A program made the position numbers and the translations under genes. A stretch of 64,000 bases of DNA, from assembly GCA_035516175.1 (NCBI GenBank), contig DATJAO010000038.1:28427-92426 (forward strand), read 5' to 3'. The notes beneath the pieces are model-generated. The model saw nothing but the letters and a program-made list of their open reading frames with translations, was not told the origin of the DNA and searched no databases. Source of the DNA: Nitrospirota bacterium. Its GTDB lineage: Bacteria > Nitrospirota > UBA9217. This document shows, piece after piece, positions 9,793 to 27,725 of the stretch (position 1 is its first letter; every line of letters starts with the position of its first letter).

Positions 9793-10169
9793 AAGTCGGG
9801 GAGGATGTTAAAGCTATTCCTCTCCACAGAACAAGACCGCGCCAAAGAGGATTCAATCAGCCGTTACTCTTCCCTTACCGAGTCTTCGGAGCAAGATGAT
9901 ACATCCCTCCGGTCAGTACTCCTGCACGCGGTTCGGGCAATCTTGACAAGTAATATTGCTTTGGGTATAGTTTTCACATGTCTTCCCCGTACCATCCTCC
10001 CCTTTGCCCCCGTGACGGTTCTCAGAGGTGAATATTACCTTGACTTAAAAGCCCGTATATGAAATAGTTGTTAATATAAACACCTGTGTGGAGGAGGTAA
10101 ACATCGAAATATTTGAAAATATTATAACGTAAACTGATGTATACTATAACGATAAAGGGAGGTATAAAA

Positions 10170-11027
10170 ATGTCATTGAGAAGAGCAGGCTTTTTCGCAG
10201 TCGTCATAACATTTTCCGTTCTCATTACCGGCAGCGCCTACGCACAGCTTGTAGGCACGGTCAAGGATGTAATTGATCCCGTCGGTAGCACAGGCAAGGT
10301 GGACTGGACTACGGGAGTGATAACGGCGGTTGGCATCGGCGCACCTCCGGCCCAGCCAGCGAACCCGGCTCAGGCGCGCGCGATGGCCGAGAGGTCAGCG
10401 CAAGTCGTCGCGTACCGCAATCTGCTGGAAGCAGTGAAGGGCGTACGGGTGGATTCAACTACGACCGTGGAGAACTTCATCGTCACGAGCGATGTGATCA
10501 AAACACAGGTGAATGGTATCATTCAGGGCGCCACGGTAATGGATAAAAAATACATGTCTGACGGATCAGTGGAGGTCACCGTCGGGATGCAGCTTACCGG
10601 AGCACTGGCTGAATCGCTGCTCCCAAAAACTCCTCTGACACCTCCTGGAGGGTTGCCTGGCACATCTGTTCCGGGAACCACGGGACAACTTTATACTGGT
10701 CTCATCGTGGACGCGCGTGGTCTCGGCGTCAGGCCCGCTATGGCGCCCAAGATCCTGAATGAGGATGGCAAGGAGGTCTATGGCTCCGCATGGATCAACA
10801 GGGACTATGCCGTGCGGGAAGGCATGGTCGGCTATATGAAGGATCCCGTTGCTGCTCAGGCAAATCCTCGCGTGGCGGATAAGCCGCTTATGGTAAAGGC
10901 GCTTAAGGTTTCCGGCGATGGCAGGGTGGACACGGTCATCAGCAATGCCGATGCAGCCATGCTCCAGGGCGTATCGCAGAATCTGAGCATGCTCGAAAAA
11001 TGCAGGGTTATCATTCTGGTCGATTAG
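10170..11027 (+). CDS. Secreted two-domain protein: LPP20/FlgP-like N-domain plus conserved C-terminal domain of unknown function (paralog A)
   Basis: AAGGGAGG RBS. Sec signal peptide ending TGSAYA-Q. N-domain (GIGAPPAQ...AQARAMAERSAQVVAYRNLLEAVKGVRVDS...YMSDGSVEVTV) has the alternating Ala/Leu pattern of the LPP20/FlgP lipoprotein family. C-domain (GLIVDARGLGVRPAMAPKILNEDGKEVYG...CRVIILVD) is shared with ORF 13801..14835. Confidence 0.6.
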   Translation: MSLRRAGFFAVVITFSVLITGSAYAQLVGTVKDVIDPVGSTGKVDWTTGVITAVGIGAPPAQPANPAQARAMAERSAQVVAYRNLLEAVKGVRVDSTTTVENFIVTSDVIKTQVNGIIQGATVMDKKYMSDGSVEVTVGMQLTGALAESLLPKTPLTPPGGLPGTSVPGTTGQLYTGLIVDARGLGVRPAMAPKILNEDGKEVYGSAWINRDYAVREGMVGYMKDPVAAQANPRVADKPLMVKALKVSGDGRVDTVISNADAAMLQGVSQNLSMLEKCRVIILVD

Positions 11028-11095: not shown

Positions 11096-12274
11096 ATGTT
11101 TACAGTGGTGAAACGCCTCATACTGGCAGTAACTGCCCTCGCGGCGCTGACTGCGGTTGCTGGTTGCGGGCCCAAGGCCGCACCGTCAATGTCGGTGATG
11201 GACACGCCCGAGTATCATTATAATCAGGGTCTGAAGGCATTGGACGCCGACAGACTGGATGACGCGATGCGAGAGTTCGACCGCGCAGTCGCCCTTGACC
11301 CGAAATCTCCGTTCGGTTATATCGGCAAAGGCCTCACCTTGGGCAAAAAAGGCGACTTTAAGCCGGCCTATGAGAACATGGAAAAAGCAAAGGATTATGA
11401 GAAAAAAGGCATCGAATCCCGCATAGGCATGATCAGGCTCTACGGAATGCAGATGGCCAAGGACCAGAAGCAGGTCAATGACCTCGTCAAATCGGCCGAG
11501 CACGAATTCAAGGCTGCCAATGAGAAGGAGCCGAACAACCCGCGACTGCACTACTACATGGGGATGTGCTACAAGATGGCGCTCGATTTCGACAAAGCCG
11601 CGACGATGTTCCGCGCTGTTCTCGACATGAATCGCGACTTCGTCGGAGAAGCCAATGCAGAGTGGGCCCTGATCCAGAAGATTCAGCGCGCAGCTCCCGG
11701 AACTGAGATCGGCAAGAAGATCGCCCTCATCGACAAAATCGACCGGGCCGATATCGCAGCACTCTTCGACCAGGAGATGAACCTGGAGAAACTCTTCACC
11801 AAGCGGGGAACGAAGACCTATGATACGAGTTTCAAGGCACCAACCGAGTCATCAACCCGCTTTTCGCCGGAGACGACGGTGAAGATGGAACCCGCCACGG
11901 ATATCGAAAACAACTGGCTCAAACCGAGCATCGAAACGGTGCTCAAGCTCCAGGTCCGGGGCCTCGAGGCCGGCCCGAACCACACCTTCGAGCCTGACAA
12001 GCTGATTACGAAGGCGGAGTTCGCACTCATGCTTGAAGACATTCTGATCAAGGTTTCCGGCGACGAGAAGCTCGCCACGAAGTACATTGGTACGACGTCG
12101 CTCTTTCCCGATGTGCGGAACGACCATTACGCGTTCAATGCCATCATGGTCGTGACCTCGCGAGGCTTTATCGAGGCCGATAAGGCGACGGGTGAATTCA
12201 AACCGAATGACCCCGTGTCGGGCGCTGATGCCCTGCTCGCGATACGGGAGTTTAAGGACCAGCTTAAGTTCTAA
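11096..12274 (+). CDS. TPR-repeat lipoprotein with SLH-like C-terminal domain
   Basis: Lipobox LTAVAGC after the signal peptide. TPR repeats in residues ~40-190. C-terminus (ITKAEFALMLEDIL...FPDVRNDHYAFNAIMVVTSRGFIEA) resembles an S-layer-homology motif. A strong intrinsic terminator follows. Confidence 0.6.
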   Translation: MFTVVKRLILAVTALAALTAVAGCGPKAAPSMSVMDTPEYHYNQGLKALDADRLDDAMREFDRAVALDPKSPFGYIGKGLTLGKKGDFKPAYENMEKAKDYEKKGIESRIGMIRLYGMQMAKDQKQVNDLVKSAEHEFKAANEKEPNNPRLHYYMGMCYKMALDFDKAATMFRAVLDMNRDFVGEANAEWALIQKIQRAAPGTEIGKKIALIDKIDRADIAALFDQEMNLEKLFTKRGTKTYDTSFKAPTESSTRFSPETTVKMEPATDIENNWLKPSIETVLKLQVRGLEAGPNHTFEPDKLITKAEFALMLEDILIKVSGDEKLATKYIGTTSLFPDVRNDHYAFNAIMVVTSRGFIEADKATGEFKPNDPVSGADALLAIREFKDQLKF

Positions 12275-12288: not shown

Positions 12289-12322
12289 GCCCGCCCCGCA
12301 TATATCGGGGCGGGCTTTTTTG
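12289..12322 (+). terminator. Rho-independent terminator (GC stem gcccgccccg/cggggcggg plus T6)
   Basis: Perfect 9-10 bp GC-rich inverted repeat with an 8-nt loop, followed by TTTTTT, 15 nt after the stop of the TPR lipoprotein gene. Confidence 0.85.
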
Positions 12323-12327: not shown

Positions 12328-13719
12328 ATGATGAACAGACCTCTATTCGCAATGATAATTCTTGCCGGAATCTGTTTTCCAGGCATTGCCGGCGCCGAAC
12401 TGAAAGTACTCTCCGGCGAGCACACCGTTGTTTATGACATCGTCAATCCACGGGGAGTAGCCTTTATTCCCGATTATTCCAATGAATCATCCGAACAGAA
12501 AGTTATCAGTCAGGACGAGTTCAGCAAACGGGTGCAAGTGACCTCCAAGATGTACCCCATGAAGACCCGTGTTCCGTATCCTATTCAGGGTGGAGTTATG
12601 CCTCCGTCTGTAATGCAGTACCTTGTGCCGGAACGTGACCGGCAGTCCAATGACCCCGCAATCGTGCGCCTTGCACAGGACGTGACTCGTGGCAGCCGGT
12701 ACGCCCATGAAGCGGCCAACGCAATCCTATCATGGATTGCGGACAACCTGACATTCGATACGAGCATCTCAACGCCTTCAGATGCACTCTCGGCGCTGAG
12801 GTACAAAAAAGCCTATTGCGTCGGCTACTCCAATCTCGCTGTGGCAATGCTCAGAGCGGCAGGCATCCCCGCTCGCGTGGCCCACGGCTATCTCCCGCCG
12901 GGATATGATTGGGGTTTTTCAAAAGAATATTGGGGTGTTAAAGTCAATGACGGCGGCTTCCACGCCTATCTGGAGATATACTATCCCGATACTGGATGGG
13001 TATTTTCCGATGCCGAGCATTCCCATAATTTCGTAGATCCATTCCATATCGTTCTTCACCTCGACGGAATGGAAATGCCGGGAGCGTACAAAGGAGGCTA
13101 TCTGGAAGTTGACAAGGCCACATTCTACACCATCTTTCAGGAAGAGGATAAGTCCGTAATGGTCGATGAACTGCCTATACCGAAAGAGAAGCGGCTCGGC
13201 AGGCGTCTGGACGATGTTCAGCATTCGGCGCTCGTAACAGGCAGGGTAACCGATACTAATGGCGCCCCGGTGCAAAAAGGTTCTGCGGTCTTATGGAAAG
13301 ACGGCAGGGGTACGCCGTATCCATTCGCTGACGGCCATTATGCCGCGGCACTGACGATCCCGGGGAAATACCGGGTTGAACTAAAAGGCCCTGGTTTTGC
13401 AAAGTCGTCCCAAGAACTTCAGATAGAACAGGGGACAGTATACCGGCTGAATTTTACCCTGCATCCGGGCGGTAGCATTAAGGGAAAAGTTACAGATTCG
13501 GCGGGCAGGCCCATTGAGGATGGCGACGTTTTCTATCGTGACGGGAACACCAGTTACGGCGTTTCCATCGAAAAAGACGGCACATATAGAATAGAAGGTC
13601 TTGCCCCTGGTCAATACAAAGTATCTGTCATGACGGGCAATAGGGAGACATCGCGTACAGGCCAGGTGGAAGCAGGCAAAGAAACCTTGATGGATTTTAT
13701 TGTACCTATGGTAAAATAA
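12328..13719 (+). CDS. Secreted transglutaminase-like cysteine protease-fold protein with two C-terminal carboxypeptidase-regulatory-like (Ig/transthyretin-like) domains
   Basis: Signal peptide (AGICFPGIAGA). Transglutaminase-core motif YKKAYCVGYSNLAVAMLRAAGIPARVAHGY with downstream H and D (HAYLEIYYPDTGWVFSD). Two repeats of the GxVTDxxGxPxxxG...Y beta-sandwich pattern (GRVTDTNGAP..., GKVTDSAGRP...). Confidence 0.65.
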   Translation: MMNRPLFAMIILAGICFPGIAGAELKVLSGEHTVVYDIVNPRGVAFIPDYSNESSEQKVISQDEFSKRVQVTSKMYPMKTRVPYPIQGGVMPPSVMQYLVPERDRQSNDPAIVRLAQDVTRGSRYAHEAANAILSWIADNLTFDTSISTPSDALSALRYKKAYCVGYSNLAVAMLRAAGIPARVAHGYLPPGYDWGFSKEYWGVKVNDGGFHAYLEIYYPDTGWVFSDAEHSHNFVDPFHIVLHLDGMEMPGAYKGGYLEVDKATFYTIFQEEDKSVMVDELPIPKEKRLGRRLDDVQHSALVTGRVTDTNGAPVQKGSAVLWKDGRGTPYPFADGHYAAALTIPGKYRVELKGPGFAKSSQELQIEQGTVYRLNFTLHPGGSIKGKVTDSAGRPIEDGDVFYRDGNTSYGVSIEKDGTYRIEGLAPGQYKVSVMTGNRETSRTGQVEAGKETLMDFIVPMVK

Positions 13720-13800
13720 TGTGAAGGGAAAATGGTCTTGAAGGAGTCCTGCGTCTTTTTTGTCTTTCCTATTTCATGACATAGTAGCTTGAGGGACAGA

Positions 13801-14835
13801 ATGAAAAAATACCCCATTAATGTTTTTATCCTTACTTTTTGTCTTCTGTATTCTGGATCTTTGTGGGCACAGACCTTCGGCCTGGCGGATGCGGTAGAGA
13901 CCACGGCCGCTGGCGCGATCAACTGGACAGTCGGAGAAGTCTATGCGAAGGGGATCGGAGCACCTCCGGCATTTCCCGGGAATGCGGCCCAGGCCCGAGC
14001 CATGGCCGAACGGGCGGCATACGTAGTAGCGCTCAGAAACCTGCTTGAAACCGTCAAGGGGGTCCGTGTTGACGCTGAAACCGTTGTTGAGAACTATATA
14101 GTAAAGAGCGACGTGATCAGGACCAGGGTGGAGGGAATCGTCAAGGGCGCCAGGATCGTGAACACCCAGTACATGCCGGACGGTTCGGTCGAAGTGCTTG
14201 TAGCAATGCCCATGAGAGGGGCTTTTTTGAATGCTATTGTACCGGACTCGTTCGGCAGACCGTCGATAATCCCGGTTCCTCAGAAACCGGCGCCTGTTGC
14301 ACCAGAAAAAAAGATAGAGCCACTGAAACCCGAACCGACCATACCAGCGCCTCCTGCTTTGCCTGAGACAAAAATAGAGCCTCCGAAGCCTTCACCACAG
14401 CCCCAGCAACCCGAAAAGAAAGCAGAACCGTCAAAGCCTGAGCCTGTTCAGCCCGTTCCCGCACCGCAGGGTCAGCCGACGGTGGCGTTCAAAGGCGGCG
14501 TCGCCACCGGACTGGTGATAGACGGCAGAGGGCTGGGTTTGAGGCCTGCACTGTTGCCGAAGATAGTCGATCAGCAGGGCCAGGAAATCTACGTAGGTCA
14601 GGTCGTAACCAGAACGAATGCCGTTGAACAAGGCGTAGCCGGCTATGCGAAAGATGTAAATGCCGCCACGAACAATTTTCGGGTGACCGACAACCCGGCC
14701 GTCATCAAGGGGGTGAACGCGTCCGGTGCGGCGAGAACGGATGTCGTAATCGGCCAGGCTGATGCGCAGGCACTCCGGCAAATGTCCGGAAAAGGCGATT
14801 TTCTGCAGTATTGCAGGGTCATCATTGTCTACTGA
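13801..14835 (+). CDS. Secreted two-domain LPP20/FlgP-like protein with Pro-rich imperfect-repeat linker (paralog B)
   Basis: GAGGG RBS before the ATG at 13801 (the track ORF begins at a TTG at 13789). Signal peptide. N-domain GIGAPPAFPGNAAQARAMAERAAYVVALRNLLETVKGVRVDAETVVENYIVKSDVIRTRVEGIVKGARIV...YMPDGSVEVLV is co-linear with paralog A. A Pro-rich linker follows with three imperfect KxEPxKPxP repeats. The C-domain is shared (GLVIDGRGLGLRPALLPKIVDQQGQEIYVG...CRVIIVY). Confidence 0.6.
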   Translation: MKKYPINVFILTFCLLYSGSLWAQTFGLADAVETTAAGAINWTVGEVYAKGIGAPPAFPGNAAQARAMAERAAYVVALRNLLETVKGVRVDAETVVENYIVKSDVIRTRVEGIVKGARIVNTQYMPDGSVEVLVAMPMRGAFLNAIVPDSFGRPSIIPVPQKPAPVAPEKKIEPLKPEPTIPAPPALPETKIEPPKPSPQPQQPEKKAEPSKPEPVQPVPAPQGQPTVAFKGGVATGLVIDGRGLGLRPALLPKIVDQQGQEIYVGQVVTRTNAVEQGVAGYAKDVNAATNNFRVTDNPAVIKGVNASGAARTDVVIGQADAQALRQMSGKGDFLQYCRVIIVY

Positions 14836-15018
14836 TCCCCTGATTCGCGAAAAAACGTCACCGTGATTATTCTCGGTGCATTTTTCGTCACGGCAATGAT
14901 TCTTGACATGATCGGCCTGTTTGTGATAGGAAGTAACAGAACATATTCGGGCTGTGTGTGATCGCGACCGGTTTGGTTGTGATAAAATATTTTTCCTGAA
15001 CTTATCTGGAGCATGTTC

Positions 15019-16395
15019 ATGCCAAGGGCCGCATCGCGGTTTTACATAGTGTTTTTTGTTTTCATCGTGTTAGCAGGATGCGTACCACCCCGGCCCATAC
15101 CGCGATATCGGGATGTCAGCAACCCCCTCAAACGAGTGGCCGTATTACCGATGAAAAACGATACCTTGGATGTCGATGGTCCGAATGTTGTCAGAAAAAA
15201 GATGATCGCGGCCCTGGAAAATAAATCCTATTATGTAAAAAACACGCAAGAAACAGACCAGATACTCCGCGATCAAATGGGGATCAATCTCGGTGGACAG
15301 CTGGAGTTGACAACACCGCAGAAAATCGGCGAGGTTTTGGGCGTTGAAGGATTATTATATGGAACGCTCATGGATTTCGATGAGACAACAACAGGCCTGC
15401 TGGACGTTAAAAAGGTCAGAGCGAAATTCAAGCTCGTGAACGCGATGACGGGCCAGACAGTCTGGGAACGGGGGCTCGGGGTAAGGTCGGAAGTGAGAAT
15501 GTCAGGAACATCGGGAAGCGCTGTTGCTCTTGCTGCCCGTGCGGCGGATGCCAAGGAAAAAGATGTTCCCTGGGTGACCATCGAGAGCGCTGCCACCAAC
15601 GAGAAAAATGTCGGGCGTTCTCTGGCGTATAGCGTCGGGGCTCAGCTTTTTTCCAAAGCCGTCGGCATCCATCTTGACTATGAATCATCCGAGCTCGTAC
15701 GAAGGGTCGCGGATAACCTACCCTGGGGGCCCGGCCCGGTTGATGTAGCCACTTTACCGCCGCCCGTGATTACGGTTCCTGAAATCAAGATGCCCGAACC
15801 ACCATCGTTCGGGTATATGGATTGGGAAGGAAAACGGGATTTCTCCGCGGTCATCTTCTCCACCTCTTTTGATAAGAGCAGGAACGAGCCCATTAACATG
15901 GAAACCCCGATAGCGATCGCAGGGAACAGAATTCGGATGGACATGGATATGTCAGGGATGATGAAAGGGGCGTCACAGTCCCCGCTCAGCAAGGTGGTCA
16001 TGATCGGTCGGGGCGATAAGAATATCAGTTATACCCTTTATCCCAATAGCCAGAAATACATGGTTCATAAGGAAAATGCGGAAATAAGGGAAAAACCCCA
16101 GATCGAGAGGACCATAGTAGGTAGCGAGGTTGTCAATAAGCATCCGACTGACAAGTTCAAGGTACGGATCACCTATAAGGATGGGAGGGTCGAGGAAGGC
16201 TTTATCTGGAACGCCAGAGATCTCGACGGCATGACCATTAAGAGCGAAGTGGAGAATAAAGACTTCAAAATAACAACGGAGCTGAGGCACATCGTCCTCA
16301 GGACTCCTCGCGCCTCGTTGTTCGAGATACCGGATGGCTATGCGGAGGCCAAGAGTATCATGGATTTGATGTCTTCAGAGCCGAATAAGAAATAA
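15019..16395 (+). CDS. Lipoprotein with N-terminal CsgG/DUF799-like (TolB-N-like fold) domain and C-terminal beta-rich domain of unknown function
   Basis: Lipobox VLAGC. N-domain pattern RVAVLPMKNDT...VVRKKMIAALENKSYYV...ETDQILRD...GVEGLLYGTLMDFDE parallels the CsgG/GNA1162-type motif (VxVLPFxNxT...amphipathic helix...LxGxIxxY). A ~230 aa C-terminal domain has no recognisable signature. Confidence 0.55.
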   Translation: MPRAASRFYIVFFVFIVLAGCVPPRPIPRYRDVSNPLKRVAVLPMKNDTLDVDGPNVVRKKMIAALENKSYYVKNTQETDQILRDQMGINLGGQLELTTPQKIGEVLGVEGLLYGTLMDFDETTTGLLDVKKVRAKFKLVNAMTGQTVWERGLGVRSEVRMSGTSGSAVALAARAADAKEKDVPWVTIESAATNEKNVGRSLAYSVGAQLFSKAVGIHLDYESSELVRRVADNLPWGPGPVDVATLPPPVITVPEIKMPEPPSFGYMDWEGKRDFSAVIFSTSFDKSRNEPINMETPIAIAGNRIRMDMDMSGMMKGASQSPLSKVVMIGRGDKNISYTLYPNSQKYMVHKENAEIREKPQIERTIVGSEVVNKHPTDKFKVRITYKDGRVEEGFIWNARDLDGMTIKSEVENKDFKITTELRHIVLRTPRASLFEIPDGYAEAKSIMDLMSSEPNKK

Positions 16396-16435
16396 TGTAT
16401 AAGAACACAGAATGCGAGCACAAGGAGGCGACACA

Positions 16436-17410
16436 ATGAAAAGAGGTTCATGGTTGACACTGGCAATCATGCTGTTGGTCTCGGTCGTGCCCATCATAGG
16501 TGGTTGCGGCCCCACGACGTCAGGAGCTGTCAAAAATGACACGACCCTGACAGATACTTCAAGGCAGCTGAAAACGACGAGCAGCGTCTCGGAATACAAA
16601 GGTCCTAAACTCCGGGTAGGCGTGGTCAATTTCCAGAACAAGACCCCTTCGAGGGTGCTGGGGATTGGAGAAGCTGCCGCCGATATTCTGGGGACCATCC
16701 TGCAGAATACCGACCGTTTCATCGTCATTCCACAGCAGGACATGGAATCCATCCTCTCGCAGCAGCGCATGGGCGCAACGGGGGCGGTCAATCCTGACAC
16801 TGCTGCCGAGATGGGAAAGGTGCTGGGACTGAATGCGATCGTGACCGGCGCAGTGACTGCCTATTCCGAAACAGAAGAAGGTTCCGATTACCTTGTGGCG
16901 AAAAGCAAGAAACAAATCGCGCGAGTCACGGTGGATTACCGCATTGTCGATACGACCACGGGAGTACAGCTCATGGCTGATTCCGGCGCGGGAATCTATT
17001 CCAAATCAGAAAGCAGGGTTCTCGGGATGGGTTCCAAAGCAGGATACGACCCCGATCTTCGCGACGGCGCCCTTCGGGACGCCCTGACCAAGGCCATGGT
17101 CAACATGATGCAAAAACTCGGCACTAAGAAGTGGAACGGTCGGATCGCCCAGATCGACGGAGACAACCTGTACATCAATGCTGGCCAGAGGTCCGGTTTG
17201 AACGTTGGGGACAAACTCAAGGTCTTCAGGACGGGCAAGGATATCATTGATCCGGTGACCAAAATGAAGCTCGGAACAACGGAAAACCTGATTGGTGAGG
17301 CGATCGTGCAACAGAATGACCTCGGTGACCAGGCCGATCTCTCCATTGCAAGGCCGACTTCTGGCACCGGTTTCAAGGCGGGAGACGTCGTTAAGCTGAG
17401 CGAGAAGTGA
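16436..17410 (+). CDS. CsgG-family outer-membrane lipoprotein with small C-terminal beta domain
   Basis: Lipobox IIGGC. KLRVGVVNFQNKT...AADILGTILQNTDRFIVIPQQDMESILSQQ...LNAIVTGAVTAYSE matches the E. coli CsgG segments IFVSVYNIQDET...ATAMLVTALKDSRWFIPLERQGLQNLLNER...ANIMVEGSIIGYES block by block. Start chosen at MKRGSWL inside track ORF 16412. Confidence 0.7.
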   Translation: MKRGSWLTLAIMLLVSVVPIIGGCGPTTSGAVKNDTTLTDTSRQLKTTSSVSEYKGPKLRVGVVNFQNKTPSRVLGIGEAAADILGTILQNTDRFIVIPQQDMESILSQQRMGATGAVNPDTAAEMGKVLGLNAIVTGAVTAYSETEEGSDYLVAKSKKQIARVTVDYRIVDTTTGVQLMADSGAGIYSKSESRVLGMGSKAGYDPDLRDGALRDALTKAMVNMMQKLGTKKWNGRIAQIDGDNLYINAGQRSGLNVGDKLKVFRTGKDIIDPVTKMKLGTTENLIGEAIVQQNDLGDQADLSIARPTSGTGFKAGDVVKLSEK

Positions 17411-17447: not shown

Positions 17448-18215
17448 ATGATGAAGCGCTTCATATATGGTGCCGCTGCCTTGCTCATAACGCTCTGGTG
17501 TCTCTCATTCGCGTCTGCAGCAGAAGAACCGGCGGCGAACACCGAGGCAATGGTTACCATGATCGAAGGAACCGCCCACGTCTTCACCAAGGGAGCGCCA
17601 GCCGAGATCCCACTCAAGAAAGGGAGCAAGCTCACGAGAGGACAGGAGATCAGGGTGGGAGCGAATTCCAGGATGGAAATTCGATTTCCCGATGGAACTG
17701 TTATGAGACTAGCGGAAAAATCCCGTCTGGTCATGGATGATGTGCTTTACGATAGCAAGACCGAGAACAAAAGTGTCAAAGTCAATCTCGCTGTCGGAAA
17801 ACTCTGGGCAAACGTAAAGAAGCTCGTGACCCCGGATTCTACAGTCGAGGTTAGAACCAGTAACGCCGTCGCCGGTGTGAGGGGAACCGTGTACCGGGTG
17901 AATGTGGAAGAAGATAAGAGCGCAGTGGTCAAGGTCTATGATGGAACGGTGTATGTGGCCAACCCGCCGAAAGAAGAATCGGGGAAGCCACCAAGGGAGG
18001 TTTCAGGTCCGGTTCCCGTTCCCGGGCCGCACGAGGTGCCTCCACCGTATCACGAAGTGACTATGGAGGAGTGGCAGGTGATCGTACAATCCTTCCAGCA
18101 GGTTACCATTTCACCGGAGGGTGTAGCATCGCAACCGCAGGATTTCGATCCCAAAGCTGACGCTGATGACTGGGTGAAGTGGAACCAGGAGAGGGACAAG
18201 CAAACCCGGTTTTAA
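17448..18215 (+). CDS. Secreted FecR-domain protein
   Basis: Signal peptide (LWCLSFASAA). FecR-like beta-sandwich motifs (RMEIRFPDGTVMRLAEKSRLVMD ... GVRGTVYRV). Contains neither a sigma-factor nor an anti-sigma transmembrane segment. Confidence 0.6.
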   Translation: MMKRFIYGAAALLITLWCLSFASAAEEPAANTEAMVTMIEGTAHVFTKGAPAEIPLKKGSKLTRGQEIRVGANSRMEIRFPDGTVMRLAEKSRLVMDDVLYDSKTENKSVKVNLAVGKLWANVKKLVTPDSTVEVRTSNAVAGVRGTVYRVNVEEDKSAVVKVYDGTVYVANPPKEESGKPPREVSGPVPVPGPHEVPPPYHEVTMEEWQVIVQSFQQVTISPEGVASQPQDFDPKADADDWVKWNQERDKQTRF

Positions 18216-18305
18216 GAACTATTGCAGAAACTGAACGTAAGAACAAGGCCGTTCCGATCCATGGAATGGCCTTTCCTTTTTTACAGAAAAGCCGTTGAAA
18301 AACAC

Positions 18306-18334
18306 TTGACACTAGATGCCCACCATGGTATAAA
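18306..18334 (+). promoter_or_regulatory. sigma-70-type promoter (TTGACA-17-TATAAA) for fur
   Basis: TTGACA at 18306-18311 and TATAAA at 18329-18334 with a 17-nt spacer, about 30 nt upstream of the fur ATG. Confidence 0.5.
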
Positions 18335-18340
18335 AGCAAT

Positions 18341-18361
18341 TGATATTGGTTTTCAATATCA
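18341..18361 (+). promoter_or_regulatory. Perfect inverted repeat TGATATTG-N5-CAATATCA overlapping the predicted fur transcription start (candidate Fur box, autoregulation)
   Basis: 8-bp arms separated by 5 nt. AT-rich TGATA/TATCA arms resemble the Fur-box half sites GATAAT/ATTATC. Position between -10 and ATG. Confidence 0.5.
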
Positions 18362-18365
18362 TGAT

Positions 18366-18806
18366 ATGCGGAAAAAACCTTCTGAACATTTAGCGGAATA
18401 TCTTTCGAGGCAAGGGCTCAAGTCGACCCAGCAGCGAGACAAGATACTTCAAATCTTTGTGGACGCAGGCAGACACGTGAGTGCGGAAGAACTCTATGAA
18501 CATGTGAAAAAAGTCCATCCCGGCATTGGCTACGCCACGGTGTATCGGACGCTCAAGCTCCTGACCAACGCAGGGCTCGCGGAGGAGAGACGGTTTGAAG
18601 ATGGATTCACGCGCTATGAGTACAAGGTCTCTGACGGGCATCACGATCACCTCATCTGTACAAAATGTGGCACAATCATAGAATTCGAGAATCAACGCAT
18701 TGAAGCACTTCAGCAGGACGTTGCAAGAAAAAACCGATTTAAAGTACAAAGTCACAAACTGGAACTGTATGGCTTATGCGCAGTTTGTCAGAAGAAGATG
18801 GAGTAA
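18366..18806 (+). CDS. fur: Ferric uptake regulator family transcription factor
   Basis: 146 aa from the internal ATG. wHTH QRDKILQIF...SAEELYEHV. Metal-site residues HHDH...CTKCG...C...C. Located downstream of the promoter and operator above. Confidence 0.85.
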   Translation: MRKKPSEHLAEYLSRQGLKSTQQRDKILQIFVDAGRHVSAEELYEHVKKVHPGIGYATVYRTLKLLTNAGLAEERRFEDGFTRYEYKVSDGHHDHLICTKCGTIIEFENQRIEALQQDVARKNRFKVQSHKLELYGLCAVCQKKME

Positions 18807-18870
18807 CTAAGCCTTACGGAGTGCGTTTGTGATCTCGGGCCATGGCGGCTATCGGTTATGAAATGATAAG

Positions 18871-20883
18871 GTGCCTATTTCGGAGGAAATGCTCATAATG
18901 AACAACCAGGATTCTGGCGACGGTGGACGCAATCGCGACTCCAGTCTTAATAAGGTTCTCTTGATCGGTAATCCGAATGTGGGCAAGAGCGCGCTCTTCG
19001 GGCTGCTTACGGGCAAATACGTTACCGTCTCGAACTATCCCGGTACCACCGTGGAAGTGACCTATGGAAACGCACTCTTGAACAAGACGCGTACCCTGGT
19101 GATCGACACGCCCGGTGTGAACAGCCTCGTACCCATGTCTGAAGACGAAAAAGTTACGAGGGACATGCTGCTTACCGACCGGGCCGGGGTCGTTGTCCAG
19201 GTGGCCGATACCAAAAACCTGCGGCGAGGGCTTCTCATTACTCTCCAGCTCTCGGAAATGGAGGTGCCATTCATCCTTGACCTCAATATGGACGATGAGG
19301 CAAAGAGCCGTGGCATTTTCATTGACCAGGAAAAACTATCCCATTTGCTCGGCATAGAAGTAGTCAAAACCGTGGCTATTCGCAGGAGCGGGATCGACAA
19401 GCTGCTGAAAGGCATTCAGCACCCACGGCCGTCCACGATCGGAGTGCGTTACGATGACGTGATCGAGGGGGGGATAAGGGACATCTCCGCTCTGCTACCG
19501 GGAGCAAACATTGCTCAACGCGCGCTTGCGCTCATGATTCTCGCTGGTGATGAAAGCCTCAAGTCTTGGCTTCACTCGAACCTGCAGGACCACGTGATCA
19601 CTGAAATTGAAAAGATACGGCAGGAAGTTCAGGCTAAATTTAATAACTCTCTTGGCTATCTCATTAACCAGCGCAGAATAAAAAAGGCTGATGAGATCCT
19701 TGCGCAGGTTATGAGCCGCCATGAAGCAGGAAAGGGATCAGCTATCTCATTTTATATCGGCAAATGGTCCATGCACCCGGTTTATGGTATCCCGATCCTT
19801 TTCGCTGTGTTGTATGCTATATATCAATTCGTCGGTGTATTCGGAGCGGGTACGGTTGTCAATTTTCTTGAAAAAACTGTATTTGGAGCATACCTCAACC
19901 CCTGGGTCACAAAGATCGTTCATTTCATTTTGCCTGTTCCGTTTTTGCAGGAGTTAATTATCGGTGACTATGGTTTGGTGACCATGGCCGTCACCTACGC
20001 GATCGCAATCGTGCTGCCGATCGTGAGCTTTTTTTTCATAGCTTTTGGTCTCCTCGAAGACTCGGGATATCTGCCGCGACTCGCAGTCATGGTAAACAAA
20101 ATTTTTAAGGTTATGGGCCTGAACGGCAAGGCTGTGCTTCCCATGATCCTCGGTCTAGGATGCGACACCATGGCAACGCTCACAACGCGTATTCTCGAAA
20201 CGAAGAAGGAGCGTCTCCTCGTAACGTTTTTGCTCGCTCTCGGCGTGCCCTGTTCCGCTCAACTTGGCGTTGTGCTTGGAATGATTTCCGGGGTCTCCGG
20301 CCTGGCAACGGTAATCTGGCTCGGGACCATGACTGGCGTTCTCCTCCTTGTTGGATATCTTGCATCGAAATTGATCCCCGGCGATCCGTCGGACTTTGTG
20401 CTCGAACTGCCGCCGATACGAATTCCACAGGTTACGAACATTCTGATCAAAACCATAGCCAGGGTACAATGGTATTTAAAAGAGGCAGTGCCGCTTTTTA
20501 TTTTGGGGACATTTATCTTGTTTGCAGCAAATAAGGTGGGTGCTCTTACGTTCATTCAAAAAATGGCTGATCCAATCGTGGTCGGCCTCTTGGGGTTGCC
20601 GAGCAAAGCCGCTGAAGCATTTGTCATAGGGTTCCTTCGCAGAGACTACGGTGCTGCAGGATTGTTTATGCTTGCAAAGCAGAACCTGCTCGATCCAATC
20701 CAGATTGTCGTGAGTCTCGTGGTGATGACACTTTTTGTGCCGTGTATTGCAAACTTCTTTATGATGGTGAAGGAACAGGGACTCAAAGCAGCTTTTTACA
20801 TGGCAGCATTCATCTTCCCTTTTGCTGTTGCTGTTGGGGCAGCGCTGAATTGGGCGCTCAGGACTTTCAGAGTCGCGTTGTGA
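18871..20883 (+). CDS. feoB: Ferrous iron transporter FeoB (G-domain plus polytopic membrane domain)
   Basis: G1 motif GNPNVGKS, DTPG, 670 aa with many TM helices and Gate motifs. A possible Fur-box-like ATGAAATGATAAGG lies just upstream. The start may be one of the downstream ATGs at 18889/18898. Confidence 0.9.
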   Translation: MPISEEMLIMNNQDSGDGGRNRDSSLNKVLLIGNPNVGKSALFGLLTGKYVTVSNYPGTTVEVTYGNALLNKTRTLVIDTPGVNSLVPMSEDEKVTRDMLLTDRAGVVVQVADTKNLRRGLLITLQLSEMEVPFILDLNMDDEAKSRGIFIDQEKLSHLLGIEVVKTVAIRRSGIDKLLKGIQHPRPSTIGVRYDDVIEGGIRDISALLPGANIAQRALALMILAGDESLKSWLHSNLQDHVITEIEKIRQEVQAKFNNSLGYLINQRRIKKADEILAQVMSRHEAGKGSAISFYIGKWSMHPVYGIPILFAVLYAIYQFVGVFGAGTVVNFLEKTVFGAYLNPWVTKIVHFILPVPFLQELIIGDYGLVTMAVTYAIAIVLPIVSFFFIAFGLLEDSGYLPRLAVMVNKIFKVMGLNGKAVLPMILGLGCDTMATLTTRILETKKERLLVTFLLALGVPCSAQLGVVLGMISGVSGLATVIWLGTMTGVLLLVGYLASKLIPGDPSDFVLELPPIRIPQVTNILIKTIARVQWYLKEAVPLFILGTFILFAANKVGALTFIQKMADPIVVGLLGLPSKAAEAFVIGFLRRDYGAAGLFMLAKQNLLDPIQIVVSLVVMTLFVPCIANFFMMVKEQGLKAAFYMAAFIFPFAVAVGAALNWALRTFRVAL

Positions 20884-21006
20884 GCGAGGATGTACGGCGC
20901 GAGGTGTTTCGGTATCAAACAAATACATGCTCTTGAAAGAACACCGGTCACGTGGTGTTTTCAGCAATAATCCAAAATGCGAATTCCGTAGTAAAAGAGG
21001 TGAACC

Positions 21007-21714
21007 ATGACTGAGAAAAAAAGATTGCTGGGGATTGAAGGCCAGGCGGGCCATCCCGCGTTGTGTGTTTTGCCGGAGATCGAAAAAGAAGATGAACTTT
21101 TTGAAATCATCTGGACTTTAAGAGAAGACGGTAAGCTGACCTTGGACCAGATCGTCCAGAGTTGTTCTATTCCGGAATGCGAAAGCATCCTTAAAGACCT
21201 GTCCAAAAACGGATGGATCGACATCAAGGGTCAGGCTGTTGAATTGCTGCCAAAAGGCGAAAAGCGCGCACGAGAACTGGTCCGGCGACATCGGCTGTCG
21301 CTTCGGATGTTCTATGATCTTTTTGCCTTGGATGGTGCAGAAGCAGAGGCGTGCAAATTCGAGCATATCCTTTCGCCGGAGGTGACCGACAGTGTCTGCA
21401 CCCTGCTTGGCCATCCGCCTAACTCTCCAGACGGCAAACCGATTCCTCGGGGGGCGTGTTGCTCCATGTTCAGACAAGAGATGAAACCGCTTGTGGCTCC
21501 GCTCGCGGACCTTGTGCCGGGAGAGCAGGCGAAGATCGTGTTCATCACTCCGGGATCGCACTCACGTCTCGACAGGCTTTCAGCTATGGGAGTTGTCCCA
21601 GGCAGCGTGGTCAAACTCCATCAGAAAAAGCCGTCGTATGTGATTCAACTCGGCGAGACCATGATTGCCGTGGACAGGGATATTACGAAAGAGATATTCG
21701 TTAAAAAGGTCTAG
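21007..21714 (+). CDS. DtxR/MntR-family metal-dependent transcriptional regulator with C-terminal SH3-like (FeoA-type) domain
   Basis: wHTH N-domain. Dimerisation/metal-site region RELVRRHRLSLRMFYDLFALDG...FEHILSPEVTDSVCTLLGHP. C-terminal FeoA/SH3-like PLADLVPGEQAKIV...MGVVPGSVVKLHQK. Confidence 0.75.
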   Translation: MTEKKRLLGIEGQAGHPALCVLPEIEKEDELFEIIWTLREDGKLTLDQIVQSCSIPECESILKDLSKNGWIDIKGQAVELLPKGEKRARELVRRHRLSLRMFYDLFALDGAEAEACKFEHILSPEVTDSVCTLLGHPPNSPDGKPIPRGACCSMFRQEMKPLVAPLADLVPGEQAKIVFITPGSHSRLDRLSAMGVVPGSVVKLHQKKPSYVIQLGETMIAVDRDITKEIFVKKV

Positions 21715-22083: not shown

Positions 22084-23508
22084 ATGGGGAAACAACCAAC
22101 CATATTGCTTGTGGATGATGAGCTGCTGGTTTTGGATTCACTCCGCGAACTCGTTACCCGCGAAGAAAAATACAACGTGACAACCGCGGAAAACGGCAAG
22201 ATCGCGCTGGAAATGACTGCGCGGGAAGATTATGCGGTCGTCATTACCGATTTGATGCTGAAGGACATAACCGGAATCGAGCTTCTCAAGACCATAAAGT
22301 CTCAAACGCCCGAAACGCAGGTGATCATGGTCAGCGGAAAGGGGAGCATAGATTTTGCGGTCGAAGCCATGAAGATGGGAGCCTTCGATTTTCTTACCAA
22401 GCCCTATTCTCCTTCCCACCTGCTTCAGATACTGGCCAGAGCGAAGGCCTATTACGAATCTCTTGTGGAGAATAAACAGCTGAAAGGCGAAATCAGAAGA
22501 CTGAAGAAGAATTATGAGATCATCGGTACCCACCCGAAGATACAGCGGATCAGGGAGATCATCGAGAACATAGCACCCTCGGACAGCACGGTTCTGATCC
22601 AGGGAAAAAGCGGCAGTGGAAAAGAACTGGTAGCCAGGGCAATACATAACCGATCGCTTCGCGCTGAGGGGCCCTTCCAGGCAGTAAACTGTGGCGTCTT
22701 TACCGAAACGCTGATTGAAAATGAATTGTTCGGCCATGAAAAGGGCGCCTATACCGGCGCTGTTCAGCGAGCGATCGGCAGAGTAGAGGCCTCGGCCGGC
22801 GGCACCCTGTTCCTCGATGAGATCGACACCATGCCCGTCAGCTCACAGGTGAAGCTGTTGCGGGTGCTTGAGGAGCGCTCGTTTCAAAGAATAGGCGGGA
22901 CCAAACCAATTTATGTGGATTTCAGGCTGATTGCAGCCACGAATAGCGATCTCCAGGATGCTGTTACAAAGAAACTTTTCCGTGATGACCTGTACTACCG
23001 TCTCAATGTCATTACCATGACCCTCCCCGAACTCAGCGAACGACTGAGCGATATTCCTCTCCTGGTAAACTACTTCATGGAACGGTATAAAGTCAGAAGC
23101 AACGTACAGTCCATCTCCGCAGCCGCTATGGACATCCTTTTAAAATATCCGTGGCCCGGCAATGTCAGGGAACTTGTGAATGCCATCGAATATTCCATGG
23201 TCATGGCAAAGGGAACCCAGATCCTTCCGGCAGACCTGCCCGAGGCCTTGCAGGTCAGGATTTTTGAACCGCATCAGCAGGTGCGTGAATCCCTTTCGCT
23301 CAAGGAAACAGAACGAGATTTAATCGTGAGGACATTGAAAGAATGTCATGGCAACAAGCATCTCGCCGCAAAACTACTTAGAATCCCCCGTTCTACACTC
23401 TACAGCAAGATCCAGAAACATGGGATCTCGATAGACGAGGATGCTGCCATTTCTCCGACTGAGCAGGAAAAAAGTACCAGCAAATCGCCCCTTGCTGTCC
23501 AGAATTAG
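22084..23508 (+). CDS. sigma-54-dependent response regulator (NtrC family: REC + AAA+ + Fis-type HTH)
   Basis: REC (LLVDDELLVLDSL...D). sigma-54 activator core with Walker A GKSGSGKE and a GAYTGA motif where GAFTGA is expected (Phe to Tyr variant). ESELFGHEKGAYTGA. C-terminal HTH LLRIPRSTLYSKIQKHGI. Confidence 0.9.
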   Translation: MGKQPTILLVDDELLVLDSLRELVTREEKYNVTTAENGKIALEMTAREDYAVVITDLMLKDITGIELLKTIKSQTPETQVIMVSGKGSIDFAVEAMKMGAFDFLTKPYSPSHLLQILARAKAYYESLVENKQLKGEIRRLKKNYEIIGTHPKIQRIREIIENIAPSDSTVLIQGKSGSGKELVARAIHNRSLRAEGPFQAVNCGVFTETLIENELFGHEKGAYTGAVQRAIGRVEASAGGTLFLDEIDTMPVSSQVKLLRVLEERSFQRIGGTKPIYVDFRLIAATNSDLQDAVTKKLFRDDLYYRLNVITMTLPELSERLSDIPLLVNYFMERYKVRSNVQSISAAAMDILLKYPWPGNVRELVNAIEYSMVMAKGTQILPADLPEALQVRIFEPHQQVRESLSLKETERDLIVRTLKECHGNKHLAAKLLRIPRSTLYSKIQKHGISIDEDAAISPTEQEKSTSKSPLAVQN

Positions 23509-23630
23509 ACCCAAAAAAAAATAATTAAAATCAACATATTAGAGCTATTTTACTGTTAATCCATCTATTGTCCTGTCTAAAACCCGTCAAACAAATTCTA
23601 TTAACTGGTTGTTTTTAAACATATAATCGT

Positions 23631-23646
23631 CGGCATTGCTCTTGCA
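23631..23646 (+). promoter_or_regulatory. sigma-54 (-24/-12) promoter cGGCATtgctcTTGCA upstream of the che operon
   Basis: GG at 23632-33 and GC at 23644-45 with exact N10 spacing. The -12 element TTGCA is exact. About 90 nt upstream of the cheY start and directly downstream of the sigma-54 activator gene. Confidence 0.55.
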
Positions 23647-23735
23647 CCATATCATAATAAAGGTGCATGAAATTTCATGCGTCGATATTATTGAAAAATG
23701 ATTAAAAATTCATAAGACATTTAAAGCGATATGAA

Positions 23736-24173
23736 ATGGAGATGGACATGAAAACTTTACTATTGGTGGATGATGAAGTTGAGAACCTTAGATGTCTTGG
23801 AGAAATACTAAACAGGTTCGGTTACAATGTCATCGCCCAGCCGGATGCTCCATCGGCGCTTTCCGTTGCGCGTGGCGGGACCCGTGTCGATCTCGTGATA
23901 ACCGACTATAGGATGCCGGGGATGGATGGCCTGGAGTTTTTCATCCTGCTTAAGCAGATACTGCCTGCCGTCCCCGTGATCATGCTCACGGCCTATGGTG
24001 CAGTCGAAACATATTTAAAATCGCTCAGCCTGGGCATATTTGAATACGTAAATAAACCGGTTAAGGCGAAGGACCTGGGAAGGATCGTGAAAGCCGCCCT
24101 CGCTTGTTCGGAAGGCGACAATATCGCTCCCGGAAGCGAGCTGTCCCAAGAATCGCCGTTATTTAAAATATAA
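23736..24173 (+). CDS. cheY: CheY-like single-domain response regulator
   Basis: REC domain: LLLVDDEVENL, DLVITDYRMPGMDG, conserved K (NKPV). Confidence 0.85.
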   Translation: MEMDMKTLLLVDDEVENLRCLGEILNRFGYNVIAQPDAPSALSVARGGTRVDLVITDYRMPGMDGLEFFILLKQILPAVPVIMLTAYGAVETYLKSLSLGIFEYVNKPVKAKDLGRIVKAALACSEGDNIAPGSELSQESPLFKI

Positions 24174-24240
24174 GCTGATGCAACACAGCGGCACGCGGGA
24201 GCTGCCAGCGCACAAAAACAGACTTCAGAAAGGCATACTC

Positions 24241-24750
24241 ATGCAAAAGAAAGATCAATTGGTCAATTTCAGAATCGGCAGAGAATCTTTTGGCGTACCC
24301 ATCGACAACGTGCAGGAGATCGTGCGGGTACCGGAGATCACGGTGGTGCCGGAAATGCCGTCATTCGTCGAAGGCGTCATCAACCTTCGCGGCAGGATCG
24401 TTCCTATCGTGGATTTGAGTAAGCGACTTAAGATTGAAGCTGCTCCCAGGGCTAAGTCAAGCCGTGTCCTGATCGTCGAAGTGGATGACAAGATCATCGG
24501 CCTTTTGGTCGACGCGGTAAACGCTATCCTGCAGATACCACAGGAGGCCGTCGAGCCTACACCTGACATCGTTACACCGGTAGGTGCTGAGTATATCATC
24601 GGCGTAGGCAAGTTGCATGACAAACTGATCATTCTCCTCAATCTCAAAAATATTCTGAGACCTGACGAGATCAAGGGACTGGTGGAGGATGAGAGTGCTG
24701 GCGCCGCGATGGGTAGAGCATCGCGACGATCACTGGAAGTGGCGGCTTGA
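24241..24750 (+). CDS. cheW: Chemotaxis coupling protein CheW
   Basis: CheW domain: LVNFRIGRESFGVPIDNVQEI...GVINLRGRIVPIVDL...GLLVDAV. ~170 aa from the internal ATG. Confidence 0.85.
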   Translation: MQKKDQLVNFRIGRESFGVPIDNVQEIVRVPEITVVPEMPSFVEGVINLRGRIVPIVDLSKRLKIEAAPRAKSSRVLIVEVDDKIIGLLVDAVNAILQIPQEAVEPTPDIVTPVGAEYIIGVGKLHDKLIILLNLKNILRPDEIKGLVEDESAGAAMGRASRRSLEVAA

Positions 24751-24790
24751 TCTAAGGCAGAGGCCGGCTCATGATTCCTTAGAATATTTT

Positions 24791-25609
24791 ATGATACTTA
24801 CCGACGATGAATTCAGGTTATTTTCGCACCTAATTTACAACGAGAGCGGGATAACCATCAAAGACACCAAAAGGGAATTTCTCCAGGCACGGCTCCAGAA
24901 GAGGCTGCTGGTCAACAGGCTGAACAGTTACTACCGCTACTATAAGTTCGTTACAGATAAAACGCGAGGTCAGCGTGAGCTTCTCGACCTTGTAGACAGC
25001 CTTACAATCAACGAAACATCGTTCTTTAGGAACAAACCCCAGTTCGACCTCTTCACCAGTATTGTCATCCCTGAATTAAAACAAAAAAGAGCACAGCAGA
25101 AAAAGATCCGGTGCTGGAGCGCAGGCTGTTCCAAAGGACAGGAAGCATATTCTATCGCCATGAGCGTTCTTGATACGCTGGAATCTCCAGAAACCTGGGA
25201 CATCATGATCCTCGCCTCGGACATCAGCCTGCGAGTACTCGACAGCGCTCAGAAAGGGGTGTACAGCGAAAGTGAGATCGAAACTGTCCATCCAGAATAT
25301 CAGAAGGAATTCTTCGATAAGGTAAACAGTCATTATCAAGTAAAGCCGAACGTCAAAAAGTTAGTGGTCTTCGATTTCCATAATCTGAAACATGAGAACG
25401 GGGTGACCGGCCTCGACGTGATATTCTGCCGGAATGTCATGATCTATTTCGACCGCGATGAACAGAAGAGACTTGTGGAAAAATTACATAACAGCTTATC
25501 TGACGGCGGATACCTTTTTTTGGGGCCCGCCGAGGGTCTCCAAGGACTTTCAGACAAGTTTAAATTTATCTACCATAACAAAGGAGCCGTATATAAAAAA
25601 GTGCCATAA
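24791..25609 (+). CDS. cheR: Chemotaxis protein methyltransferase CheR
   Basis: N-terminal CheR helical domain (DDEFRLFSHLIYNESGI). SAM-MTase core (TSFFRN...IRCWSAGCSKGQEAYSIAM...VIFCRNVMIYFD). Confidence 0.85.
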   Translation: MILTDDEFRLFSHLIYNESGITIKDTKREFLQARLQKRLLVNRLNSYYRYYKFVTDKTRGQRELLDLVDSLTINETSFFRNKPQFDLFTSIVIPELKQKRAQQKKIRCWSAGCSKGQEAYSIAMSVLDTLESPETWDIMILASDISLRVLDSAQKGVYSESEIETVHPEYQKEFFDKVNSHYQVKPNVKKLVVFDFHNLKHENGVTGLDVIFCRNVMIYFDRDEQKRLVEKLHNSLSDGGYLFLGPAEGLQGLSDKFKFIYHNKGAVYKKVP

Positions 25610-25676
25610 AACGCTGGGAACGCAATGACGGTATCCGGTGTGCAGGGGTTGTTTTGCGGCAGAGAAGAAAGGGGCA

Positions 25677-27650: not shown

Positions 27651-27725
27651 GACAGCCCAGGGCGCGAATGCGGATTCGGCTTATAGTGCGAGGCGCACCA
27701 TGCAGTAGTGCAAAAGTGAACACAT

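Follow-up and report, generated by a model that had tools for sequence, protein, structure and literature searches.

A GNA1162-like/CsgG-like lipoprotein pair of Nitrospirota and Desulfobacterota lacks the pore-defining elements of CsgG and may act as a periplasmic scaffold or adaptor

An alpha/beta 'ring-building' domain is common to CsgG, GNA1162, PelC, LpoB, TolB-N and the middle domain of FlgT. The outer-membrane lipoproteins PqiC, LptE, PelC and CsgG-like proteins have a common alpha/beta core and are adaptors for trans-envelope transport (PMC13631591). CsgG itself is a nonameric channel with a 36-stranded barrel. It requires a Phe/Asn clamp in its constriction loop (PMC4594475). In the H-ring of V. 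cholerae, FlgT forms a periplasmic ring of C26 symmetry, and the lipoproteins FlgO and FlgP, of C58 symmetry, are anchored in the outer membrane without forming a pore (bioRxiv 10.64898/2025.12.02.691832). A 'csgG cluster' encoding CsgG-like, DUF4810 and GNA1162/DUF799 lipoproteins is widespread in Gram-negatives, and its mechanism is not established (bioRxiv 10.1101/2021.05.19.444899). In A. baumannii, mutants deleted for the csgG-like gene, or for the 12600 lipoprotein gene next to it, produce less poly-N-acetylglucosamine (PNAG) and bind less Congo red; those without CsgG also show reduced Cup pili and biofilm (bioRxiv 10.1101/2021.05.19.444899). Here we analysed a pair of adjacent lipoprotein genes, A and B, that lie within a 64-kb stretch of DNA from a Nitrospirota bacterium (contig DATJAO010000038.1, positions 28,427 to 92,426; this whole stretch of 64,000 nucleotides (nt) is called the window below). 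The product of A is GNA1162-like and that of B is CsgG-like.

The A-B pair is a variant of this already described csgG cluster. As in N. meningitidis (GNA1162, PDB 4hrv) and A. baumannii (D1G37_12595-12605), a GNA1162-type gene lies beside a CsgG-family gene outside curli loci. In contrast to those clusters, the order is reversed in A-B, with the GNA1162-like gene first; A carries a helical extension and a LolA-like domain, B carries a FlgT_C-like tail, and the partners are FlgP/FlgT_N-like and TPR-SLH proteins. A DUF4810 lipoprotein was not found: the window neighbours gave no Pfam match to that family, and the gaps beside A and B hold no + strand open reading frame (ORF) of at least 60 amino acids (aa). 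The gene order, the lack of a DUF4810 gene, both appendages and the partners are what is new here. The first-pass annotation had called the arrangement uncharacterised outside curli; the arrangement is in fact known and has been mutated in A. baumannii (bioRxiv 10.1101/2021.05.19.444899).

The first-pass annotation had also proposed that A and B form a CsgG-like pore, with B matching canonical CsgG segment by segment. E. coli CsgG was used as the reference for the pore comparison. B aligned to it by hhalign at 98%, and the periplasmic alpha/beta domains are homologous. A profile built from 74 diverse B-family members (profile A3) likewise matched CsgG in the PDB at 6e-16. A segment-by-segment match is overstated: the constriction loop and most of the second transmembrane hairpin (TM2) are missing from B. 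The loop containing Y51, N55 and F56 is lost through an 8-residue deletion; the sequence there is NKTPSRVLGIG in B and DETGQFKPYPASNFSTAV in E. coli CsgG. The first transmembrane hairpin (TM1, mature residues 134-154) was not matched in B either, where the flanking anchors are 38 rather than 44 residues apart, 6 aa shorter; the B-family median at the TM1 site is also 38. The B segment at this position, hairpin 1 (YSETEEGSDYLVAKSKKQ), is 41% charged compared to 14% in CsgG TM1, and its residues E145, E147, E148 and K158 are invariant in close homologs. Charged fraction discriminates only weakly across the family (medians of 0.24/0.19 compared to 0.14/0.29 in CsgG) and was applied only to B hairpin 1.

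TM2 (mature residues 184-204) was likewise not matched in B. The anchors on either side are 57 residues apart compared to 68 in CsgG, or 30 compared to 42 when measured to the helix-capping Pro, which makes this stretch of B 11-12 aa shorter than that of CsgG. Alignments of B to CsgG by hidden Markov model (HMM) and by hhalign both stop before TM2, and in the low-confidence AlphaFold2 (AF2) model of B no returning strand is seen before the helix at 206-229. In total, 17-18 of the 42 transmembrane-hairpin residues are missing from B. Consistent with hairpin loss, B puts 180 residues on the 198 positions of the Pfam CsgG model. When the family was aligned to E. coli CsgG by MAFFT, no gap appeared at TM2 and the helix of B was slid onto the TM2b strand; that alignment was set aside in favour of the anchor-to-anchor distances given here.

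A is still further from CsgG. Its hairpin 1 is another 8 aa shorter than that of B, and its fold is like that of the soluble proteins GNA1162 and PelC. A direct hhalign comparison of A to E. coli CsgG gave 1.2%, which is no signal, so that A is linked to CsgG only via B. No csgE-, csgF-, csgA- or csgB-like genes or curli domains were found among the window neighbours of A and B. The transmembrane hairpins expected of a pore are thus essentially lacking from both proteins, with the alpha/beta domain of B being without a high-confidence structure. Compared to CsgG (PDB 4uv3, 3x2r, 6l7a), B has the N-terminal lipid anchor and a homologous alpha/beta domain, but it has no constriction loop, its TM1 and TM2 sites are shortened, it carries an extra FlgT_C/TsaP domain and it has no csgE/F/A/B partners. 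Collectively, these results suggest that A and B are essentially not beta-barrel pore formers, and that annotation as a CsgG channel is misleading.

B nevertheless belongs to the broad Pfam CsgG family (1e-22), without being a CsgG-type channel. Searched alone against the PDB with phmmer, B matched TsaP (6ve2, 2e-4) through its tail; CsgG chains of the PDB were not matched at E<=1 by B alone or by a profile of its close homologs. With profile A3, the match to CsgG covered profile positions 7-173 only, ending just past the TM1 site. The same profile matched TsaP (8e-14) via the tail, FlgT (8z5n/3w1e, 5e-7) over positions 111-303, corresponding to the middle and C domains of FlgT, and, weakly, LpoB (0.01). 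Pfam matches among the 74 B-family members were to CsgG (69), LpoB (48), FlgT_M (17), FlgT_C (17) and TolB_N (11). For B itself, the match to Pfam FlgT_C (5e-5, 24.1 bits) is under the cut-off of 27, and that to NCBIfam LpoB is weak (7e-4, 19.6 bits) and under its cut-off of 110.6. A library-wide search returned 4686 relatives of B, 1100 of them below 1e-10. Most of the best 150 span both domains, and the two-domain architecture is therefore widespread.

The AF2 model of B was built from 32 close homologs (74-96% identity) and has a mean predicted local distance difference test score (pLDDT) of 49.5, with values below 50 in the alpha/beta domain and of ~70-80 in the tail. The top Foldseek matches of this model were FlgT 8z5n (6e-15, template modelling (TM) score 0.58 over 291 columns) and FlgT 3w1e (1e-13). 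CsgG followed at 1e-7, its best match being the non-lipidated pre-pore form, and further matches were PelC (2e-6) and the LptE-like protein Cj1090c. The comparison to the CsgG structure that the pore proposal called for thus places the model of B closer to periplasmic FlgT than to CsgG. As modelled, B overall looks like FlgT minus the FlgT_N domain. It has the same domain order as FlgT of Vibrio polar flagella (PDB 3w1e, 8z5n, 9ydo), with a beta C-domain after an alpha/beta middle domain, but differs in being a lipoprotein with a conserved linker and no FlgT_N. The FlgT_N/LPP20-like domains sit in separate proteins, namely LPP20a and LPP20b in the window and protein X of Desulfobacterota, which are described below. 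The ~90-aa beta-rich tail noted in the first pass was seen in the AF2 secondary structure and is of an already known type, FlgT_C/TsaP-like. It is homologous to the repeated beta domains of TsaP, the secretin-associated ring protein of type IV pili (PDB 6ve2, 3jc8); in contrast to TsaP, B has no LysM domain (no Pfam match), carries the beta domain only once and has no secretin gene in its vicinity.

Between the lipid anchor and the alpha/beta domain of B lies a Ser/Thr-rich linker, in which the motif SGAV[KR]DD[TS][TS]LT is kept from Nitrospirota to Desulfobacterales. This conservation suggests that the linker contains a binding motif and is not simply a passive tether.

A consists of two domains joined by a linker (aa ~242-262) that is disordered in the AF2 model, which was built from 35 sequences (pLDDT 75). 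The N-domain matches Pfam GNA1162-like/DUF799 at 2.3e-12 (47.3 bits, cut-off 25.9). GNA1162 (4hrv) was the sole solved relative found by sequence in the PDB, at 9e-8, or 4e-5 using the family profile, and it was also found by Foldseek with the modelled N-domain (6e-10, TM to target 0.76), together with PelC (4e-6) and FlgT. PelC, a component of the Pel exporter, has the same alpha/beta fold as A and B and forms a dodecameric lipid-anchored ring below the outer membrane with no barrel of its own (PDB 5t0z, 5t10), but it is a single-domain protein, and no pel genes lie near A-B. The C-domain of A is all-beta in the model (pLDDT ~80-90). It matches Pfam DUF4412 (1.5e-6, 28.6 bits, cut-off 21.6), and Foldseek matched it to LolA, EPDR1 (ependymin-related), LprG and MucB (best ~1e-7, range to 1e-5; TM to target 0.5-0.6). 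The model thus gives this domain the unclosed beta half-barrel fold of the LolA-like superfamily. What sets A apart from that superfamily is that the domain follows a GNA1162-type domain within one lipoprotein, and that it is optional in the family: intact A homologs without it occur in about 16 loci. Of the 20 A-homolog ORFs shorter than 300 aa, three (loci L006, L050 and L064) are truncated at contig ends and one (L074) carries a frameshift. The first-pass description of A as a DUF799-type N-domain followed by an unknown domain was right about the N-domain and about the ~200 further residues, which are no longer unknown but DUF4412/LolA-like.

The alpha/beta domains of the A and B families gave an hhalign probability of 98.5% (E 3e-15), and by this profile comparison they are paralogous. 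The two genes thus encode, as first suggested, tandem CsgG-superfamily lipoproteins with differing C-terminal appendages. To place the pair in related genomes, loci were scanned in one genome per species with a 4-sequence alignment as query, which yielded 80 loci in the phyla Nitrospirota and Desulfobacterota. Of these, 70 had flanks long enough to judge the gene order, and in 69 of them A immediately precedes B; the median distance between the two genes is 37.5 nt. The pair is conserved at 42-97% identity across loci, and 100% identical copies also exist. The whole seven-gene cluster of the window is confined to one Nitrospirota lineage. TPR-SLH and LPP20-like genes recur with A-B in two gene orders, standing before A in Nitrospirota and after B in the 'Deltaproteobacteria' loci L076-L082, where A and B are followed first by the TPR-SLH gene and then by the LPP20-like gene. 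A further gene lies directly upstream of A in 29 loci of Desulfobacterota. It encodes protein X (~400 aa), which has FlgT_N and CsgG/FlgO-like domains and always adjoins A in the X-A-B trio. The N-domain of X is homologous to the N-domain of LPP20b (94%), its middle domain is homologous to the alpha/beta domain of B (95%), and its C-terminal ~90 aa are without family assignment. Cluster look-ups of distant relatives gave automatic names only, without a characterised homolog.

A second, shorter B-like paralog of 289 aa was observed at L017:14906-15775 (-) and also in L018, L028 and L034, with CsgG, FlgO, FlgT_C and TolB_N matches. Relative to A-B it is encoded on the other strand, ~4 kb downstream, beside an Lnb_N/DUF7840 protein.

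The best explanation, to which we give slightly better than an even chance, is that A and B are an outer-membrane-tethered periplasmic scaffold or adaptor and not a pore. A and B would act jointly in the periplasm as a ring- or lattice-forming hetero-oligomeric scaffold or adaptor below the outer membrane, with their alpha/beta domains oligomerising side by side as in PelC (12-mer), CsgG (9-mer) and FlgT (26-mer). The beta tail of B would be directed to the cell wall and dock a partner, and the SLH protein would fasten the assembly to the wall. The optional LolA-like domain of A may bind a hydrophobic ligand, such as an acyl chain or lipid, or serve as an extra docking module. A joint function or a hetero-oligomer is plausible because A and B are strictly adjacent. 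To that extent the earlier idea of a hetero-oligomeric or two-layer pore is upheld; the pore part of it is not, with the pore elements missing.

Several points weigh against this explanation. Hairpin 1 of B is 8 aa longer than that of A and has a small hydrophobic tip, DYLV, so that some membrane contact is possible, and a few B-family members attain CsgG-like lengths, with maxima of 51 at the TM1 site and 68 at the TM2 site. An A-B oligomer was neither predicted nor observed, and a partner machine such as a secretin, porin or transporter was not found nearby. The model of B is of low confidence, which makes its FlgT match and secondary structure soft evidence. The rule that sorts lipoproteins to the outer or the inner membrane is also not established for these phyla.

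A bolder form of the periplasmic scaffold or adaptor, which we consider rather unlikely, is that A-B together with the FlgP/FlgT_N-like and TPR-SLH proteins build a non-flagellar disk or ring of a kind not seen before, lying beneath the outer membrane in Nitrospirota and Desulfobacterota and related to the H-ring or basal disk of flagella but free-standing. If true, the disk would be an ancestral envelope module that was recruited into flagellar outer scaffolds, or it would surround a further outer-membrane machine, and the LolA-like domain would tie it to lipid or lipoprotein handling.

It is unlikely that an A/B ring instead docks a trans-envelope exporter, for lipid, lipoprotein or polysaccharide, to a channel in the outer membrane whose gene lies elsewhere, as PelC, PqiC or LptE would, with the LolA-like domain of A handling the hydrophobic cargo. 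This possibility overlaps with the scaffold or adaptor favoured above and differs from it only in purpose. In Foldseek, A and B both matched PelC, the C-domain of A alone matched LolA, and B alone matched LptE-like Cj1090c. These matches are consistent with an exporter-docking ring, as are the superfamily theme of transport adaptors (PMC13631591) and the effect of the A. baumannii CsgG-like/GNA1162-like cluster on surface PNAG and pili. However, no exporter, MCE, Pel or Lpt genes adjoin the pair in any lineage, and the LolA-like domain is dispensable in the intact A homologs of about 16 loci.

LpoB, the outer-membrane activator of PBP1b, resembles B in being a lipoprotein, in having a linker and in its alpha/beta fold. 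A and/or B could accordingly span the periplasm on a flexible linker and activate or position a peptidoglycan synthase or hydrolase without forming a ring, which we regard as quite unlikely. The number of B-family members matching Pfam LpoB (48 of 74, best 1.5e-12) argues for such regulators, as do the weak LpoB matches of B and of profile A3, the ~30-aa low-confidence Ser/Thr-rich linker after the lipid anchor of B, and wall-related neighbours, namely the SLH and transglutaminase-core proteins in the window and a SpoIID-TPR protein in L081. But B has a FlgT_C/TsaP domain and a paralogous partner, both of which are lacking in LpoB, and the linker of B is conserved in sequence (SGAVKDDTTLT) and not merely flexible. 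There is no penicillin-binding protein gene in the cluster, and the wall-related neighbours are not kept across phyla.

The likeness to H-ring components raises the question of a true flagellar accessory structure, an equivalent of the H-ring or of the Campylobacter basal disk that is encoded apart from flagellar loci in Nitrospirota and Desulfobacterota. The FlgP-like proteins, the FlgT_M+C-like organisation of B, the FlgT_N domain in X and the FlgO matches in the paralogs would all fit such a structure, and 6 kb downstream the window holds a che operon. Iron-uptake and regulator genes, however, stand between that operon and the cluster, and B, unlike FlgT, is a lipoprotein without FlgT_N. 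When 15 E. coli core flagellar proteins were used in a tblastn screen (E<=1e-3), no match was found in the 1.24 Mb of flanks of 81 loci (within 10 kb) or in the 64-kb window. The X-A-B trio is, moreover, present in a metagenome-assembled genome (MAG) assigned to Desulfosudis oleivorans (L066), the species that includes strain Hxd3. As Desulfococcus oleovorans, this species was reported to have no FliC/D/F/G/M/N or MotA/B matches and no flagella (PMC2829493). Because the screen was empty and because of this report, we down-weight the flagellar explanation and consider it highly unlikely.

Finally, a CsgG-like oligomeric beta-barrel secretion pore made by B alone or with A, maybe hetero-oligomeric or two-layered, is very improbable: the Pfam and profile matches to CsgG, the lipid anchor of B, its TM1-site hairpin that is longer than in A or GNA1162 and the pipeline annotation speak for it, but the constriction loop is deleted, the transmembrane hairpins are truncated or highly charged with invariant charged residues, the profile alignments end before TM2, the top structural match is periplasmic FlgT with the best CsgG matches to the pre-pore form, and no CsgE/F/A/B-like genes are among the neighbours.

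The coordinates of the pair and its neighbours are collected in the table. A and B are both real genes with database homologs. For B these number in the hundreds, and the close homologs of A and B are named Nitrospirota MAG proteins; a 100% identical copy of A has been deposited as 'GNA1162 family protein [Nitrospirota bacterium]', 458 aa. The two ORFs are adjacent on the + strand and both proteins have lipoprotein signal peptides with lipoboxes, which bears out the first-pass annotation on each count. A has a signal peptide and the lipobox VLAGC (...FIVLAGC) with Cys21, and B has the lipobox IIGGC (...PIIGGC) with Cys24 of the 324-aa form. Neither has Asp at +2, the residues after the anchor being Cys-Val-Pro in A and Cys-Gly-Pro in B. 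The start codon of A, ATG 15019, is preceded 7 nt 5' by GGAG. For B, an AAGGAGG lies at 16422-16428, and almost all of its full-length homologs measure 320-330 aa, mostly 324, compared to 332 from the upstream start. We therefore place the start of B at ATG 16436 and not at 16412. The gap between A and B is accordingly 40 nt, close to the median over related loci, and not the 17 nt given at first.

Table. Features of the lipoprotein cluster, with examples of protein X from other loci
Feature	Position	Strand	Basis or remark
Sigma-70-like promoter match 11/12 before LPP20a	9943-9971	+	Consensus match
LPP20a, secreted, FlgP/LPP20-like N-domain	10137..11027	+	41% identical to LPP20b
TPR + SLH lipoprotein, lipobox VAGC	11096..12274	+	Pfam TPR_2 7e-12, SLH 4e-10
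Terminator-like hairpin after TPR-SLH gene	12289-12315	+	Consensus match only
Secreted transglutaminase-core + CarboxypepD_reg protein	12328..13719	+	Pfam 1.9e-24, 1.1e-22
LPP20b, directly upstream of A; secreted, FlgP/LPP20-like N-domain, Pro-rich linker, conserved C-domain	13789..14835	+	Pfam LPP20 4e-6
Gene A, 458-aa lipoprotein	15019..16395	+	ORF from 15013/15019; 100% identical 458-aa database protein
A N-terminal alpha/beta domain with helical extension, aa ~39-233	15133..15717	+	hhalign to B, PDB GNA1162, AF2
A C-terminal LolA-like/DUF4412 half-barrel domain (predicted), aa ~275-426	15841..16296	+	Pfam, AF2, Foldseek
Shine-Dalgarno AAGGAGG of B	16422..16428	+	7 nt before ATG 16436
Gene B, 324-aa lipoprotein	16436..17410	+	ORF from 16412/16436
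B Ser/Thr-rich linker after anchor Cys, aa 25-55	16505-16600	+	Conserved among homologs; low AF2 confidence
B alpha/beta domain, CsgG superfamily, aa ~56-232	16601..17131	+	Aligned to E. coli CsgG by hhalign and HMM
B C-terminal FlgT_C/TsaP-type beta domain, aa ~233-324	17132..17407	+	PDB TsaP/FlgT matches, AF2
Secreted FecR-domain protein, 255 aa, 37 nt past B	17448..18215	+	Pfam FecR 3e-19
Terminator-like hairpin after FecR-domain gene, 12-bp stem then T run	18245..18273	+	Consensus match only
Protein X examples	L051:7141-8415, L066:7963-9231, L081:7810-8997		Also in 26 further Desulfobacterota loci

Among the neighbours, the LPP20-like N-domains matched FlgP-type lipoproteins of flagellar motors in the PDB (9hmf_C at 7e-7; V. 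cholerae/Vibrio FlgP at 2e-3 to 3e-2). LPP20a and LPP20b also share a ~110-aa C-terminal domain (GL[IV][IV]D[AG]RGLG[VL]RPA[ML][AL]PKI...), which gave no Pfam family or solved-structure match, and the linker of LPP20b is ~85 aa long and rich in Pro, Lys and Glu. By synteny, the transglutaminase-core gene is in the cluster only within this Nitrospirota lineage. The FecR-domain gene follows B in most Nitrospirota-type loci and not in Desulfobacterota; in this lineage it probably belongs, as third gene, to the same transcription unit as A and B. The positions of the terminator-like hairpins suggest an A-B-FecR unit, with the seven genes in two or three transcription units. In L081, a TPR + SpoIID protein of the peptidoglycan-remodelling type (13314-14918) follows the A-B-TPR/SLH-LPP20-like cluster.

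An iron-homeostasis cluster (Fur, FeoB and a DtxR-like repressor fused to FeoA; 18222-21714) comes right after the FecR-domain gene, and its synteny with the lipoprotein cluster is kept in the Nitrospirota lineage. At 22084-28796 it is followed by a sigma-54-dependent response regulator and a CheW-CheR-CheA-CheB chemosensory operon. Elsewhere in the window, an efflux locus at 39769-44601 encodes a TolC-like OEP, an HlyD-type adaptor and a MacB/FtsX permease, and a second OEP gene lies at 58829-60424 (-). An unusually long ORF of 649 aa at 47681-49630 (-) lies wholly antisense to a relA/spoT gene at 47528-49702 (+; HD_4, RelA_SpoT, TGS, ACT); it has no Pfam match and is probably a shadow ORF.

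Hundreds of B-type proteins carry the pipeline label 'curli biogenesis system outer membrane secretion channel CsgG'. Since the pore-defining elements are missing, inferences about secretion systems or nanopores drawn from this label would be wrong. The CsgG-like/GNA1162 pair is widespread and affects surface polymers in Acinetobacter, and the FlgT-like and LolA-like domains of A-B, together with its conserved partners, point to a testable model of a periplasmic ring or adaptor. FlgT-, FlgP- and FlgO-type components occur jointly at a distance from flagellar genes, in one species reported to be without flagella, which bears on the origin of the accessory rings of high-torque flagellar motors.

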